Shown piece by piece: positions 58,862 through 64,000 of a stretch of 64,000 bases of DNA. This DNA comes from Candidatus Cloacimonadales bacterium (GTDB lineage Bacteria; Cloacimonadota; Cloacimonadia; Cloacimonadales; DAONDQ01), in contig OY759316.1 in NCBI GenBank assembly GCA_963662275.1, positions 3,136,001-3,200,000 on the forward strand, given 5' to 3'. Each line of letters starts with the position of its first letter. The stretch's first letter is position 1. The notes below the pieces were generated by a model, which saw only the letters and a program-made list of their open reading frames with translations, was not told where the DNA came from and did not search any database. Both the position numbers and the translations under genes were made by a program.

Positions 58862-60550
58862 TTAGATGATCTTGGTAATCATATACTTCAAGTATAGAAC
58901 TTTCTTCACTAAGGGATAGATAAAATCAGTCTGCTTAGAGACAACCACTTTATAGAGACCTAGCTGATTAACTCTCTCCGAAATGTGCATATTGATCTTA
59001 CGATAATCCACTTGTCCGGTAAAGCAATTTCGATATAGATATCTATCTCTTGCAGAACGCATCTTTTTCAGAATTCGTACTATTTTTTCAGGATACTCCA
59101 GGGATTCAATCAATTTGATGTTGGTACCCAATTCAGCACGGTAAAGCCTGGTATTCATACTTTTCACAACAATTGCTTCCGGTCTGTAGGCTACGATAGT
59201 ACTTGGTTTATCCTGTTGAAGATTGCAATAGTGGGCTAAACCATAACCGCTGCTGAAAGTCGCACGCAGGACATCGATATCTAAAAATGGAAGATATTGG
59301 TAAAGACCAAGATTCTTGGCAATCATACATATTGGACTGATCTTTTTTGCCGGAAAATAGGCATAAACAAATTGAAGAAATGCCGGATAATTCTTTTTTT
59401 TATTAATATCCTTGAATTCATGACCAAATGCTTTCGCTAAATAGCTTTCCATATTCTTTTTAAAAACAGGGTCAAAATCTCCGAAATACTGATCCATTGC
59501 TTGTGATAATGTCAGTTTATTTGACAATACATCCTGGAGTGGTTGAGAAACACATGCATCAGACAATATTCCTTTAACGAATTCGCTGCCGAAATATCCT
59601 TCAAATATGGTTGCAGGAGTAGGTATGTTCTGATAAAAATGAATATCAAGAGTAGAATCAAGCAAGCCATTTGACATGGATAAACCTTCTTGAAGCTCTG
59701 TGTCAAAATTCTCTTCAAAGGATTGAAAGGTGACATAATTGATATCAAGCTTAATCTCTTTTGCTAATTTCTCAACTTTCTGACGTTCTACATATTGTTT
59801 ATCACCCCAGCTATATATTTTTGGCTTCATCTGATATTTCAACAGACATGATAAGATAGTCCGCGAATCCGAGCCGGCAGAGAATGAAATAGCCGCATCA
59901 GATACAGCAATTTTAGCTTTTTCAAAGAATTTTTCATATGCTGTCTGAATACGCAAACTTCCTTCTAAATTAAAAAGCTCCTCATACTTGTTTTGTTCGG
60001 TAATCGTGATCTTTCCTGTTATCAAATCGTAAACCAAAGCCTGGTTCGGCAAAAATACATTAATATCCTTGAATACAGTCTTGGCACCACGTGTAGAATT
60101 AAAAAACAACATTTCATAGAAAGCTTCCAGGTCTTGATCTTTATTCAAAAGCTTGGCTAGATGATAGACATTATTGGAAATGATTATTCTATGATTATCC
60201 ATATAATAAAAATAAGGAAAAATACCCCAGTAATCAGATTTGCATAAGATTTTCTCTGGACTACCATAAACAAAACTTACATAGGGATATGCTTTTACTC
60301 TTCCTAACAAATCAGGTGCATCTATGGTTCTAATAATGTTATTCTCGAGATCAGAAAATGAAAACTGCCGCATATTATAACTAGAAGAGTGGTTAAAATC
60401 TCCATTAGAAACCTCATGCTTAGTATAGATATGACAATTAACAAACTCCCCTTTAAACTCTCTATGATGAGAATATGAAGAATCTATCTGCTCTGTTACA
60501 CAAGTCTCCACATCTTGACATACTTCCAAAATGAAATCATCATTATCCAT
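58862..60550 (-). CDS. Asparagine synthetase-like protein
   Basis: DYWGIFPYFY, PP-loop variant SAGSDSR, GYFGSE, LPFLD. Confidence 0.7.
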   Translation of the reverse strand: MDNDDFILEVCQDVETCVTEQIDSSYSHHREFKGEFVNCHIYTKHEVSNGDFNHSSSYNMRQFSFSDLENNIIRTIDAPDLLGRVKAYPYVSFVYGSPEKILCKSDYWGIFPYFYYMDNHRIIISNNVYHLAKLLNKDQDLEAFYEMLFFNSTRGAKTVFKDINVFLPNQALVYDLITGKITITEQNKYEELFNLEGSLRIQTAYEKFFEKAKIAVSDAAISFSAGSDSRTILSCLLKYQMKPKIYSWGDKQYVERQKVEKLAKEIKLDINYVTFQSFEENFDTELQEGLSMSNGLLDSTLDIHFYQNIPTPATIFEGYFGSEFVKGILSDACVSQPLQDVLSNKLTLSQAMDQYFGDFDPVFKKNMESYLAKAFGHEFKDINKKKNYPAFLQFVYAYFPAKKISPICMIAKNLGLYQYLPFLDIDVLRATFSSGYGLAHYCNLQQDKPSTIVAYRPEAIVVKSMNTRLYRAELGTNIKLIESLEYPEKIVRILKKMRSARDRYLYRNCFTGQVDYRKINMHISERVNQLGLYKVVVSKQTDFIYPLVKKVLYLKYMITKII

Positions 60551-60845: not shown

Positions 60846-60876
60846 AAAACTGTGAACTTGAAAAGAAGGAGTTATC

Positions 60877-61752
60877 ATGTTTAATTTTGTTTCTCTGAAA
60901 GTTAAATGCCCGCACTGTGGTGCATCCTTTACGGACGAGGAGCACCTAATCGATAATCTGCCAAGTATGAAGATTTCGGTGAAAATAGGCGGACAAAAAG
61001 GTTCTATCTGGCTCTCATCAATCTATGGAAGTTACAATATCGATTCGGATATCATTGTTAAAGAAAATGAGATTGCCGAATTCTCTTGCTCGCATTGTTC
61101 CCAACCACTAACAAGCCAGGAATTATGTTCCGTTTGCAGCGCTCCTCTAGTTGATTTCAACTTGGAAGAGGGTGGAAAAGTTAGTATTTGTTCACGTGCT
61201 GGTTGTAAAAAACACAATGTTGAATTTGAAGACCTATCAACAGCTCTTGCTCATTTCTATGAGGATTTCTCTTACCGTGGACAAAAAACGCCGGATGTGA
61301 AAGACTCTTTGAATCAGCAAACTTCAAAAGAAGATGATCAACAGGAAAATAAAGCAATCATTGAATCTGGTACATACTTGCATTCATTCTGTCCCTATTG
61401 CAGAAAAAGCCTGAATGATCATGATATGCTCAAATTGAAGATTGAAAAAGGAGACGGAGAAATTGGTTTTCTACTTCTCAGTCCCTATTTAAATGTTTTT
61501 TCTCATAAATCAACGATTCAGCTTCCAGAACAGACTTCTGTAAAAGGAGTAAAATGCTGGCATTGTGACCATAGCCTGAAAGTGGAAGAAGAACCATGCC
61601 CAAAGTGCGGTTCAGAATTGATCAGGGTTCAAGTTGCCACTTTTACGAAAATGGCTGATTTCTATATATGCTCCAAAAAAGGGTGCACCTGGCATGGATT
61701 AAGTGATGAAGATCTGAACAGTATCATTCTCGAAGATAGTGAGGAATGGTAA
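60877..61752 (+). CDS. Cys-rich protein with two copies of an 8-Cys/1-His putative metal-binding domain
   Basis: CPHC/CSHC/CSVC/CSRAGCKKH and CPYC/CWHC/CPKC/CSKKGCTWH. Confidence 0.85.
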   Translation: MFNFVSLKVKCPHCGASFTDEEHLIDNLPSMKISVKIGGQKGSIWLSSIYGSYNIDSDIIVKENEIAEFSCSHCSQPLTSQELCSVCSAPLVDFNLEEGGKVSICSRAGCKKHNVEFEDLSTALAHFYEDFSYRGQKTPDVKDSLNQQTSKEDDQQENKAIIESGTYLHSFCPYCRKSLNDHDMLKLKIEKGDGEIGFLLLSPYLNVFSHKSTIQLPEQTSVKGVKCWHCDHSLKVEEEPCPKCGSELIRVQVATFTKMADFYICSKKGCTWHGLSDEDLNSIILEDSEEW

Positions 61753-61753
61753 C

Positions 61754-62578
61754 ATGTTCGAGATTGTACGTAGAGATGAAATGGCAAAAGGTTCTATCAT
61801 TCGCTTTGATATCAGTGCTCCAGCTATCGCCAAGAAAATTAAGGCAGGACAATTTGTCATTTTACGTGTGAATGAGACAGGTGAAAGAATACCTCTAACA
61901 GTTGCTGATGTAGACCCATTTAGTGGTACGATAACACTCATCTTTCAAGTTGTTGGAAAAACGACGGCATTAATGCGGTCATTGAAGGAAGGTGGTTTTA
62001 TTCGGGATGTAGTTGGTCCATTAGGAAGACCGGCTCATATTGAGAAATTCGGTACGGTAGTCGTGATTGGTGGAGGAACAGGAATAGCCATTCTTCATCA
62101 TATCACGAAAGCACTCCAACAGGCAGGGAATAATATCCTGGGTATCATTGGTGCTCGAACGAAAGAGCTGTTGATTTTAGAACATGAGATAGCCTCGATG
62201 TGTGATGATCTTGTTATTACAACGGATGATGGAAGTTATGGTATACAGGGCTTTGTCACTGATCCCCTGAAGAAATGGCTTGATGAGAGAGACGATATCA
62301 AACTTGTCTACGCTATTGGTCCTATCATCATGATGAAAAATATATGCAATTTAACTAAAAAATACAAAATACCTACTATGGTAAGTTTAAATCCGGTCAT
62401 GATCGATGGAACAGGGATGTGTGGCGGATGCCGTGTCAATGTTGACGGCAAAACACAATTCTGTTGTGCTGACGGTCCTGATTTTGATGGTCATAAAGTC
62501 GATTTTATTGAATTGGAAAAGCGTAATTCCATGTATATCAAAGAAGAGAAAGACGCTTTGTTGTATTCTATCCGTTAA
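61754..62578 (+). CDS. nfnA: NfnA-like ferredoxin-NADP reductase small subunit (FAD, 2Fe-2S)
   Basis: GQFVILR, ERIPLT, GPLG, GGGTG, TDDGSYG, MIDGTGMCGGCRV...CADGPDF. ATG at 61754. Confidence 0.9.
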   Translation: MFEIVRRDEMAKGSIIRFDISAPAIAKKIKAGQFVILRVNETGERIPLTVADVDPFSGTITLIFQVVGKTTALMRSLKEGGFIRDVVGPLGRPAHIEKFGTVVVIGGGTGIAILHHITKALQQAGNNILGIIGARTKELLILEHEIASMCDDLVITTDDGSYGIQGFVTDPLKKWLDERDDIKLVYAIGPIIMMKNICNLTKKYKIPTMVSLNPVMIDGTGMCGGCRVNVDGKTQFCCADGPDFDGHKVDFIELEKRNSMYIKEEKDALLYSIR

Positions 62579-62599
62579 CCTTCGAATCGGAGAGTAACC

Positions 62600-64000
62600 A
62601 TGCTGGATTATGACGTAAAATATCTCAAATATAAGACCTACTTAAATACTTACTGCCCTCACTGTAACAACAGTTTTAATGTAAAGATCAAAGGAAACGA
62701 TATTATCCTTTTTGAAGGTATTTTCAAAGGGCAGGAAATGACTTTGAAATTAAGTCCTTATCTTGATGTCTTTGAAGTGGAAACATCCATTCCTATAAAA
62801 CAGGGCGAAGTCCTTGATGACCTACGCTGTCCGCAATGTAAGACTAGTCTTTTATCAAAAGAAATATCCTGCGGGGAATGTAATTCGCCGGTTGCCAAAA
62901 TCATTATTACTGCTTATTCAAAACTAATACCCTTCTTTATTTGCTTGAAATATGGCTGTGAATGGCATGGTCTTACAAAAGCAGATGAAAGAAAAATCAA
63001 ACTTAAAATACCCAGGCAGGAAATGCCGGAACAGGATCAGAAACTCAGGGCTCATAACTTCCAGGAAGTACCCTATGGGCTGACAACAGAACTGGCTCAA
63101 TTGGAAGCAGGACGTTGTCTGCAATGCGCCACACCGAAATGTGTATTAGGTTGCCCTGTTGGAGTAGATATTCCTTCCTTTATCAAGCTGATTCGGCAGG
63201 ATGATTTTGATGGTGCGGCAAAGAAGATCAAGGAAACCAATATCCTTCCTTCCGTCTGTGGTAGAGTATGTCCACAGGAAGACCAGTGCGAAAAGCACTG
63301 TGTTCTGGGTATACGTGATGAACCGGTTGCCATTGGTAACCTGGAACGCTTTGTTGCTGATTTCGAAAGAAAAATGGATCTTGTGAAACCTCCTGTTGTG
63401 GCAACCCGCAGAAATAAGAAGGTTGCTGTTGTAGGTTCAGGACCTGGCGGTATTACGGTTGCAGGTGATTTGGCTCAACTTGGATATTCTGTGACCATGT
63501 ACGAAGCTCTTCACGAATCGGGAGGCGTACTTGTTTATGGTATTCCTGAATTCAGGCTGCCAAAATCTATTGTAGGATTTGAAATAGACTATCTGCGAAA
63601 ACTGGGTGTCAAGATAGAAGTGAACCAAGTGATCGGTACTCTCTACACTGTTGATGAATTACTGGAGAACTTTGATGCCGTATATCTTGGTGTTGGAGCA
63701 GGACTTCCTAAGTTTATGGGTATTGAAGGTGAAAACCTGTGTAATATCTTCTCTGCCAATGAATACCTGACTCGAATCAATTTAATGAAGGCATATAGAT
63801 TTCCAGAATATGATACACCACTACCCAAAGGTCAGCATGTCGTTGTTATCGGTGGTGGAAACGTAGCCATGGACTGTGCCCGGTGTGCATTGAGAACCAT
63901 CTCAGGGCAAGTGACCATCGTCTATCGCCGTTCACGTAAAGAACTACCTGCCAGACAAGCTGAAACACATCATGCAGAAGAGGAAGGAATCAAGTTCAAG
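62600..64000 (+). CDS. nfnB: NfnB-like (GltD-homologous) large subunit with a ~135-aa N-terminal Cys-rich extension; truncated by the window end
   Basis: Hand translation from ATG 62600: MLDYDVKY...; RCLQCATPKCVLGCP, CGRVCPQEDQCEKHC, VGSGPGG, GIPEFRLP, IGGGNVAMD, YRRS. Not in the supplied ORF track. Confidence 0.92.
   Translation, partial: MLDYDVKYLKYKTYLNTYCPHCNNSFNVKIKGNDIILFEGIFKGQEMTLKLSPYLDVFEVETSIPIKQGEVLDDLRCPQCKTSLLSKEISCGECNSPVAKIIITAYSKLIPFFICLKYGCEWHGLTKADERKIKLKIPRQEMPEQDQKLRAHNFQEVPYGLTTELAQLEAGRCLQCATPKCVLGCPVGVDIPSFIKLIRQDDFDGAAKKIKETNILPSVCGRVCPQEDQCEKHCVLGIRDEPVAIGNLERFVADFERKMDLVKPPVVATRRNKKVAVVGSGPGGITVAGDLAQLGYSVTMYEALHESGGVLVYGIPEFRLPKSIVGFEIDYLRKLGVKIEVNQVIGTLYTVDELLENFDAVYLGVGAGLPKFMGIEGENLCNIFSANEYLTRINLMKAYRFPEYDTPLPKGQHVVVIGGGNVAMDCARCALRTISGQVTIVYRRSRKELPARQAETHHAEEEGIKFK

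Follow-up and report, generated by a model that had tools for sequence, protein, structure and literature searches.

A 64,000-nucleotide stretch of a Candidatus Cloacimonadales chromosome (G000:C1:3136001-3200000 of a single-contig genome of 4.38 Mb; hereafter the window) ends in an NfnAB-type operon in which one cysteine-rich module occurs three times. This module, here called X, makes up both halves of XX, the protein encoded by the first gene, and is fused to the N-terminus of the large subunit, NfnB. Comparisons of sequence identify X as a real, strongly conserved and unnamed module, predicted to bind metal, that is carried by textbook electron-bifurcating enzymes in many phyla. We tentatively favor an accessory role for X at the ferredoxin end of these enzymes, where the module, which probably binds zinc, would regulate them or bind a partner. 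Flavin-based electron bifurcation has its model systems in NfnAB and the Bfu/Stn enzymes, which set the NADH, NADPH and ferredoxin balance of anaerobes. With X at the ferredoxin end of both classes in many phyla, the enzymes of Thermotoga, Pyrococcus, Sporomusa and Thermococcus would not be the whole picture, and X may add a so far unrecognized level at which these enzymes are controlled, choose partners or route electrons.

The solved NfnB/NfnL chains 4ylf_B (468 aa), 5jca_L (474 aa) and 5vj7_A (476 aa) aligned, from their own residues 5-8 onward, with residues 139-594, 136-592 and 134-594 of the window's NfnB. Because the solved chains begin only at residue ~134-139, the first ~135 residues of NfnB are extra; the original prediction had placed such an extension before the canonical start and had stated that characterized NfnB lacks it, and both statements are borne out by this alignment. 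In single BLASTP comparisons the extension matched the C-terminal half of XX with 43 of 133 residues identical (E 5e-23) and the N-terminal half with 31 of 118 (E 1e-9), and the two halves of XX matched each other with 33 of 120 (E 2e-10), indicating that the three proposed copies are true paralogues of one domain. A search of the whole genome of the window found no further copy, the fourth match having an E-value of 0.17. The three-way alignment of the ~125-residue module contained 22 invariant columns, among them eight cysteines, in four pairs, and one histidine, in the pattern CxxC … CxxC-x9/10-CxxC … C-x4-C-x2-H.

The conservation of this pattern was assessed in 155 near-full-length copies from proteins fetched in the profile search described below and later. 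The description of X as an 8-Cys/1-His domain held for the cysteines, all eight of which were kept in 147 of the 155 copies (129 of these also keeping the histidine), but not in full for the histidine, which was present in 134. Mean pairwise identity of the NfnB-borne module (NfnB-X) was 64% across 64 aligned homologues, versus 75-76% in the catalytic domains, and because this conservation is at the protein level the extension is translated and does not reflect a mis-called start. The junction is more constrained still: nearly all of the linker K136-D146 was invariant in these 64 sequences, and residues 131-149 had a mean pairwise identity of 86%. The two modules of XX showed 57% and 59% mean pairwise identity and the linker between them 21%, and the C-terminal tryptophan, W291, was invariant in 50 sequences. 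Homologues of XX numbered 677 proteins of 160-510 aa, with identities of 50-88% among the matches listed. XX is acidic (median isoelectric point 5.8, median net charge -8).

Two departures from the pattern were observed in NfnB-X. The four cysteines of the third and fourth knuckles are missing, with the rest of the module kept, in L012:3104-3502 (genome G121) and in protein P0254. If this joint loss reflects metal pairing, one metal site may be made by knuckles 1+2 and the other by 3+4, as opposed to a 1+4 and 2+3 arrangement. In two Cloacimonadota loci of family f17 (L009 and L010) the histidine is replaced by isoleucine or threonine, and the same genomes are without XX.

Domain libraries recognized only part of the module. 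Pfam matches on X were generic zinc-ribbon models alone, spanning ~25-45 of its 125 residues over the middle two CxxC knuckles, in keeping with the claim that the domain is unnamed. The C-terminal module of XX scored just above the cut-offs of DZR (32.4 versus 27.3), Zn_ribbon_3 (30.4 versus 27) and Zn_Ribbon_1 (27.2 versus 25), and NfnB-X on its own fell below that of DZR (22.3 versus 27.3). The likeness to the double zinc ribbon families (PF12773 DZR, PF13248, PF13240, PF07191) thus lies in the middle two knuckles of the XX C-module, but these families are silent on the outer cysteine pairs and the beta core. No model specific for X was present in Pfam or NCBIfam, and nothing in NCBIfam came near its cut-off; sub-threshold matches included a 'rubrerythrin-like domain' (E 0.0013) and a 'DVU_1557 family redox protein' (E 0.0026). 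As regards a rubredoxin-type domain, the matches listed offered only a sub-threshold one, to NCBIfam NF033497 (18.5 bits against a cut-off of 32). The automatic Atlas name of 45-47% of XX cluster members, PF09334 'tRNA synthetase class I (M) domain', was rejected, as the resemblance is confined to the zinc-knuckle insert of MetRS.

An AlphaFold2 model of NfnB-X, built on an alignment of 30 X copies (A2), was predicted to be all-beta with a mean predicted local distance difference test (pLDDT) of 85.9 and a predicted TM-score (pTM) of 0.76. The model of XX (pLDDT 80.9, pTM 0.47) contained two well-folded modules separated by residues 132-155 with pLDDT <50, and XX is accordingly predicted to consist of two independent modules with a disordered linker, a layout that agrees with its conservation profile. 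The profile of the 30 copies found no solved relative among PDB sequences (best E 0.034, the Mdm2 RING domain). Foldseek against the PDB gave no match at E <= 0.001 (best 0.08), and the best Z-scores of an exhaustive VIA-align search were 3.3 for NfnB-X and 3.0 for XX. Both models recurrently and weakly resembled the C-terminal domains of RIG-I-like receptors, which bind zinc through four cysteines, and EF-Tu-type beta-barrels. These are structural look-alikes only (Z <=3.3, root-mean-square deviation 3.4-6 A, Foldseek E >=0.08; for the RIG-I-like receptor match of XX, Z 3.0 over 83 residues, deviation 5.4, E 0.08); their scores are at the level of unrelated matches, and the profile search of PDB sequences found no relation of X to either type. 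The models thus match no known fold, from which novelty of the fold does not follow.

On all sequence criteria that were tested, the enzyme core itself conforms to an ordinary NfnAB, and electron bifurcation is predicted for it. The small subunit matched NCBIfam NF004862 (388.6 bits, cut-off 220) and Pfam DHODB_Fe-S_bind PF10418 and NAD_binding_1 PF00175, and full-length NfnB was the sole match in the genome above the cut-off of TIGR01316 (570.7 bits, cut-off 471.75), with an E-value of 9.6e-162 against 4ylf_B. As in NfnAB/NfnSL of T. maritima (4YLF/4YRY) and P. furiosus (NfnI 5JCA, NfnII 5VJ7), nfnA and nfnB adjoin, both family models are matched above cut-off and the alignment of NfnB with the solved large subunits runs from one end to the other. 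Unlike the window's enzyme, the solved NfnAB enzymes start at residue ~135 of its NfnB and have neither an X module nor a third protein. The window's enzyme does not consist of two canonical subunits only, NfnB carrying 135 further residues and the XX gene being coupled to the operon; with X and XX present, it is filed as a variant and not as canonical NfnAB.

The three genes, all on the forward strand, form one translationally coupled operon. XX (60877..61752, stop codon included; 291 aa) is two X modules joined by a flexible linker, and direct reading of the sequence places a Shine-Dalgarno-like AAGGAG at 60866..60871, 5 nt before its start codon. BLASTP paralogy, alignment and the tree described below assign its N-terminal module (60877..61251; ..LSSIYGSY.. 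and GGKVSICSRAGCKKH) to type A, which is followed by an acidic, poorly conserved linker (residues ~126-154; 61252..61338) and by a type B module (61339..61749; ..LSPYLNVF.. and FYICSKKGCTWHGL), the closer match of the NfnB extension. The XX stop codon (TAA, 61750-52) is separated by 1 bp from the ATG of nfnA at 61754, and the nfnA stop codon (TAA, 62576-78) by 21 bp from the ATG of nfnB at 62600, so that the open reading frame (ORF) layout and gaps are as originally described. A Shine-Dalgarno-like GGAG/GAGGA lies just 5′ of each start codon. nfnA (61754..62578) encodes a 274-aa small subunit with FAD/NAD(H)-binding and [2Fe-2S] domains; its ATG and its N-terminus, MFEI.., are shared with homologues. 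In nfnB, paralogy and the AlphaFold2 model define the type B X module (residues 1-135; 62600..63004), which is followed by the strongly conserved linker KIPRQEMPEQD.., equivalent to the canonical NfnB N-terminus (63005..63046), the two-[4Fe-4S] domain Fer4_20 (residues 150-259; 63047..63376; Pfam 143.3 bits) and the FAD/NADPH-binding part (Pyr_redox_2; 63416..64000), which is cut by the end of the window. The full gene encodes 597 aa and extends for 393 further bases, including the stop codon. A promoter and terminator scan of the operon was uninformative, with 11 promoter-like sites against 12.8 expected and no terminators.

A search of 1.84 billion representative proteins with the A2 profile retrieved 470 representative clusters at E <= 0.001, 211 at E <= 1e-10 and 28 at E <= 1e-30. 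Most of 150 family proteins listed were single-module (~115-160 aa) or two-module (~270-300 aa). Thirty-three listed proteins of at least 190 aa, intact two-module XX-type proteins excluded, were scanned with Pfam. Twelve carried a NuoE/HydC-type domain (PF01257) followed by a C-terminal X, four carried X followed by a CBS pair, four carried Fer4_20 (NfnB pieces) and one combined an adenylate cyclase, AAA_16 and X; three matched one other family each (TauE, tRNA-synt_1g, CpXC) and nine matched none. The N-terminal part of two of the latter, P0335 and P0375, may resemble a Mur-ligase/PgsB-type enzyme, judging by its sequence motifs. The survey of fusions and neighborhoods proposed with the original prediction thus yielded a family fused to NfnB, NuoE, kinases and CBS proteins; with its 470 clusters and its kinase and CBS fusions, it merits a database name. 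In a tree of 74 X copies, NfnB-X and the C-modules of XX formed a type B clade (support 100/100) within which NfnB-X was monophyletic (98/97). Type A comprises the rest, namely XX N-modules, single-module proteins and the NuoE-, CBS- and kinase-borne copies. A single-module X gene at L022:2250-3689 (-) (genome G019) adjoins, by eye, genes resembling an extracytoplasmic function (ECF) sigma factor and a zinc-binding anti-sigma factor.

A fusion to NuoE/HydC-like subunits had been suggested in the original prediction, and proved real and common. All 23 homologues of the module of protein P0328 carry PF01257. Nine NuoE-borne copies (A5), representing the NuoE-fused subtype only, were searched against one genome per GTDB species; 315 stretches matched and 300 were confirmed. 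NuoE-like subunits with X at the C-terminus (NuoE-X) are thereby encoded in no fewer than 300 species genomes from many phyla, with records from Zixibacteria, Ignavibacteriaceae, Bacteroidota, Acidobacteriota, Planctomycetota/Phycisphaerae, Coatesbacteria, Eisenbacteria, KSB1, WOR-3, NC10/Methylomirabilota, Thermodesulfobacteriota, Gemmatimonadota, Marinimicrobia, Latescibacterota, Fibrobacteraceae and others. Operon composition was counted in the best 80 of the 300 confirmed loci (L026-L105), in which the fused copies were 68-98% identical to the first query sequence.

A NuoF-type gene directly followed NuoE-X in 77 of these 80 loci. In 60, the order was NuoE-X, NuoF-type, a ~225-aa 2Fe-2S protein (Fer2_4) and a ~527-aa GltB-like protein (PF01645); 16 of the remaining 20 run out of contig, and 4 had room but no match. 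Of these 60 loci, 41 (one with a split gene) encode a NuoF-type protein of ~1057 aa in fusion with a GltD/NfnB-like part, and 19 encode the unfused form (~616 aa). Pfam and NCBIfam analysis of L033 (e.g. L033:6524-12852), L066 and L026 supported these assignments and revealed the hallmarks of Bfu enzymes: a BfuC of NuoE type (PF01257) beside BfuB, a BfuA with a 2Fe-2S domain, and a BfuB candidate that combines NuoF domains with a 2Fe-2S part at its N-terminus and an Fe-S part at its C-terminus. The GltB-like protein had no NCBIfam match. By its domain content the four-gene operon seems to encode a complex of Bfu type whose catalytic subunit resembles glutamate synthase. Such a type was not found in the accessible part of the Bfu family paper (PMC9304861), where the word 'glutamate' is absent. 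As had been surmised, then, the module is shared among bifurcating complexes, being present on NfnAB and on the Bfu/Stn class, which are unrelated.

NuoE-X was the sole X protein in 79 of the 80 loci, L026 having a single-module gene just upstream, and 8 of 10 whole genomes with NuoE-X contained exactly one X. Upstream, a histidine kinase and a sigma-54 response regulator are encoded at ~30 of the 80 loci. A conserved protein of ~100-156 aa (e.g. L066:5999-6466) with no Pfam or NCBIfam match is also encoded at ~45 of the 80, in the interval from the sigma-54 regulator to NuoE-X.

XX was in turn associated with a second bifurcating enzyme. X is present in 53 of 301 genomes sampled from the class to which the Ignavibacteriaceae metagenome-assembled genome (MAG) of L033 belongs. 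Six encode XX together with X-NfnB, five XX only, 11 NuoE-X-sized frames and about 26 an X within a 619-665-aa frame, and a few have short or partial X frames. Both inspected loci of the first kind (L115, L116) read XX, nfnA, X-nfnB, NuoE-like, NuoF-like and a ~1200-aa protein. At each of the five XX-only loci (L109, L111-L114) the order is XX, NuoE-like, NuoF-like and the ~1200-aa protein without nfnAB in the locus, and no X-NfnB was found in these five genomes (G403, G371, G363, G411, G258). The domain order of the ~1200-aa protein is Fer2_4, Fer4_20, Pyr_redox_2, Fer4_Nqo3, Molybdop_Fe4S4 and Molybdopterin. As judged from its domains, this subunit has the published architecture of StnC, a protein of 1172 aa described, in the portion of the report available, as having a [2Fe-2S] part at the N-terminus and regions that are GltD-like (102-565) and FdhF-like (683-1172) (PMC10482914). 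XX relatives thus head operons with subunits like those of StnABC/Nfn-Bfu NfnABC (S. ovata 8OH5; T. sibiricus 9N5U), and XX was the first gene of its operon at every inspected locus. The occurrence of XX, beside NfnAB or StnABC, follows function and is not tied to a single protein fold.

The XX-stnABC operons ended in a gene for a 151-153-aa rubrerythrin-like protein (PF02915) in 4 of 4 loci with room on the contig. Many rubrerythrins carry a rubredoxin domain; because the four proteins have no cysteine, they are without one of their own. The window's genome also has a stnABC-like operon (G000:C1:2685996-2691612 (-); L110:3996-9612), which lacks an X module and encodes a plain 153-aa NuoE-like, a 591-aa NuoF-like and a 1149-aa StnC-like subunit.

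X was also found in signaling proteins. Three of the ~26 frames of 619-665 aa were inspected (L106:4184-6052, L107:4459-6330, L108:4992-6872 (-)) and are of one protein type, in which the first knuckle of X is C-x3-H instead of CxxC. In L106, Pfam identified HAMP, HisKA, X at ~430-550 and then the C-terminal two thirds of HATPase_c; by this domain order X interrupts the ATPase region in a sensor histidine kinase. The operon contains genes for NrfC-like, NrfD-like and multihaem cytochrome c proteins and for two response regulators fused to GCV_H (glycine-cleavage H-protein) domains. With copies in kinases, in CBS proteins and in a cyclase, X looks like a sensing or binding module and not like a fixed wire.

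The distribution of the Nfn form was traced separately. A query with NfnB-X retrieved 317 proteins of 328-1045 aa; the 120 matches listed all have NfnB domains, are 63-95% identical over the module and have source names that include Cloacimonadota, Bacteroidales, Bacteroidota and Ignavibacteria. An archaeal label on two MAGs may reflect binning. Within Cloacimonadota, an X match was obtained in 44 of 232 species genomes (25 of 151 of good quality; 17 of 66 genera). Thirty-two of these genomes also have the XX C-module, nearly always ~1.2 kb upstream of X-nfnB. Four (G222, G225, G139, G121) have nfnA/X-nfnB without an adjoining XX and without another X match in the genome; a further four genomes, some with contigs too short to tell, are left out of this count. 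TIGR01316 exceeded its cut-off in 50 of the 232 genomes (53 rows), 37 times in frames of 593-624 aa and 16 times in frames of 442-470 aa, the size expected without X. X-bearing and X-less NfnB occur together in G154, G145 and G222. Because X-less NfnB coexists in the phylum, X marks a distinct NfnB paralogue and is not a lineage-wide decoration. One of the 16 short frames (G020:C76:3748-5067 (-)) is an X-nfnB with an in-frame TAG, X preceding it, and in G148:C331:1425-1774 XX is split over two frames; both interruptions may be pseudogenes or assembly errors.

Neither the module nor XX was encountered in the accessible literature on these enzymes. A 2019 review of Nfn architectures distinguishes four patterns, A-D, none with a cysteine-rich N-terminal module, and the words 'zinc' and 'Cloacimon' are absent from its accessible text (PMC6405883). 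The available portions of the Bfu, Stn and Nfn-Bfu papers make no mention of an X module or XX partner (PMC9304861, PMC10482914, PMC12018979); 'zinc' and 'extension' are absent from the first of these (PMC9304861). Zinc sites reported in the accessible text on Stn/Nfn-Bfu structures are inside BfuB, the NuoF-like subunit (PMC10482914, PMC12018979). The characterized StnA/NfnC subunits are, where described there, plain, e.g. 154 aa, unlike NuoE-X (PMC12018979). A search outside of subscription journals and supplements returned no paper joining electron bifurcation with a zinc ribbon or NfnAB with Cloacimonas, and, among the papers listed, nothing relevant on an NfnB N-terminal extension and zinc. 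A review covering Cloacimonetes and Nfn is silent on the module.

The role that we tentatively favor starts from the points of fusion. X lies directly before the two-[4Fe-4S] domain in NfnB and directly after the thioredoxin-like [2Fe-2S] domain in NuoE/BfuC. In NfnAB structure papers the large-subunit Fe-S domain is reportedly the low-potential branch toward ferredoxin. BfuC's C-terminal domain is described, in the accessible part of the Nfn-Bfu report, as mobile and gating bifurcation, and as forming the ferredoxin-binding cleft with the Fd-like domain of BfuB (PMC12018979). Because of these fusion points X would be tethered at the ferredoxin end in two classes with unrelated bifurcating cores, a position near the ferredoxin site that we infer from the chain junctions and from published structures of relatives. 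X would be an all-beta unit whose four cysteine pairs hold two metal ions, most likely structural zinc, and would serve as an accessory plug-in, not as a link in the catalytic electron path. At the low-potential end it would act in a regulatory or partner-binding capacity, for example by letting the redox state of its metal-thiolate sites control or direct the access of ferredoxin. Fused copies (NfnB N-terminus, NuoE/BfuC C-terminus) would work in cis, and XX would work in trans. Consistent with this role are, besides the fusion points, the linkage to NfnAB, StnABC and Bfu-type enzymes, the signaling contexts, the lack of an obligate partner copy, the strong constraint and the restriction of library matches to zinc ribbons.

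Several points weigh against this role. Metal content, binding and regulation are all predicted from sequence, and the pairing of the cysteine knuckles and the placement of X on the enzyme are likewise predictions. X-less NfnB in the same phylum, in three genomes beside the X form, argues that X is not needed for Nfn chemistry as such. The G121/L012 lineage lost four cysteines yet keeps the domain, so that metal binding may be dispensable in places. The cysteine-less rubrerythrin-like gene of the XX-stnABC operons suits an electron-carrying XX better than a purely structural role, and 'regulatory or docking' is itself broad.

The electron carrier is the main alternative, possible if doubtful. 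Here X would be a redox-active metal module, with two rubredoxin-like Fe(Cys)4 centers or another cysteine-ligated iron site, and XX, with four sites, a dedicated carrier exchanging electrons with NfnAB and StnABC instead of or beside ferredoxin, e.g. to feed a rubrerythrin-like peroxidase. The four CxxC-type pairs are suitably preserved in the 147 complete copies, and the fusion points are at the low-potential end of both enzyme classes as far as the available text of the Nfn-Bfu report describes it (PMC12018979). XX stands first in the operons of two unrelated enzymes with nothing in common but the reaction and a GltD-like module, those with stnABC ending in the cysteine-less rubrerythrin-like protein, and the weak NCBIfam matches to rubrerythrin-like and DVU_1557 proteins, far below cut-off, point the same way. 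Many small electron carriers are acidic, as XX mildly is. However, rubredoxin-type centers are usually far above ferredoxin in potential, and such a potential would short-circuit bifurcation. Most NuoE-X genomes are without a free X protein for onward transfer, X occurs in kinases, CBS proteins and a cyclase without a redox partner in the same chain, the 10-residue spacing of the middle pairs is that of zinc ribbons, as are all models matched above cut-off, and no rubrerythrin gene was found in the examined surroundings of the window's own operon. An extended form of this proposal is unlikely: XX, with its four Cys4 metal centers, would be a soluble carrier of a new class and X its enzyme-bound counterpart, together forming a low-potential port shared by NfnAB, StnABC and the GltB-like Bfu-type complex and wiring them to non-ferredoxin acceptors such as the rubredoxin-less rubrerythrin-like protein.

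We consider it similarly unlikely that X is specifically a thiol/metal redox or oxidant sensor, a zinc-thiolate switch that upon cysteine oxidation would shut off the oxygen-sensitive bifurcating enzymes or signal through kinases. Hsp33 and the anti-sigma factor RsrA have switches of this kind. The location of X between HisKA and the C-terminal HATPase_c part of a kinase amid NrfC-like, NrfD and multihaem cytochrome genes would suit a sensor, as would its fusion to CBS pairs and to an AAA_16-bearing cyclase, the kinase and sigma-54 regulator preceding about 30 of the 80 NuoE-X operons, the rubrerythrin-like gene in some XX operons and the single-module gene beside ECF sigma/anti-sigma-like genes in L022. 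Strict conservation of eight cysteines is, however, equally expected for a purely structural zinc site. The sensor overlaps the accessory role that we favor, differs from it only in naming the signal, and is a sharper version of it.

The original prediction had offered homotypic docking of X copies, giving a three-component Nfn, and an obligate pair of XX and X-NfnB in a fixed three-subunit enzyme now appears improbable. The C-module of XX and NfnB-X are indeed mutual closest relatives in the tree, their genes are translationally coupled, and they adjoin in nearly all of the 32 Cloacimonadota genomes with both. Against this, four genomes (G222, G225, G139, G121) have nfnA and X-nfnB without XX, the five XX-only genomes have stnABC without X-NfnB, 8 of 10 NuoE-X genomes have a single copy, and the modules of XX are not predicted to pack together (pTM 0.47). 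X-NfnB, XX and NuoE-X are independent of one another, and because each occurs without the others, obligate docking between X modules is unlikely. A complex prediction with full-length X-NfnB (597 aa) and XX (291 aa) scored 0.00 in both runs, which were without controls and count as evidence neither way.

That XX is a zinc-ribbon nucleic-acid-binding regulator of its operon, or a maturation factor for Fe-S or flavin subunits, with the fused copies as relics, would fit its first position at every inspected locus, the automatic naming of homologues as ssDNA- or RNA-binding zinc-ribbon proteins and the weak RIG-I-like receptor resemblance (Z 3.0; Foldseek E 0.08), but is highly improbable given the acidity of XX (median isoelectric point 5.8, net charge -8), the strong constraint on fused copies (64% in NfnB; 68-98% to the query in 80 NuoE-fused copies) and fold matches at noise level. 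Whichever role applies, X is small, soluble and easy to express.

The surroundings upstream of the operon are unrelated to it and comprise a TonB-dependent receptor, a lipoprotein-like ORF and a divergent 562-aa ORF (window 58862-60550 (-)) with no Pfam match at E <= 1e-5. A phosphopantetheinyl transferase gene lies downstream. Farther along, past the end of the window (L005:6415-11006), are two paralogous genes of the class I/II aminotransferase fold (396 and 415 aa), the first of which was scanned with Pfam; the 480-aa ORF between them is transposase-like by eye.

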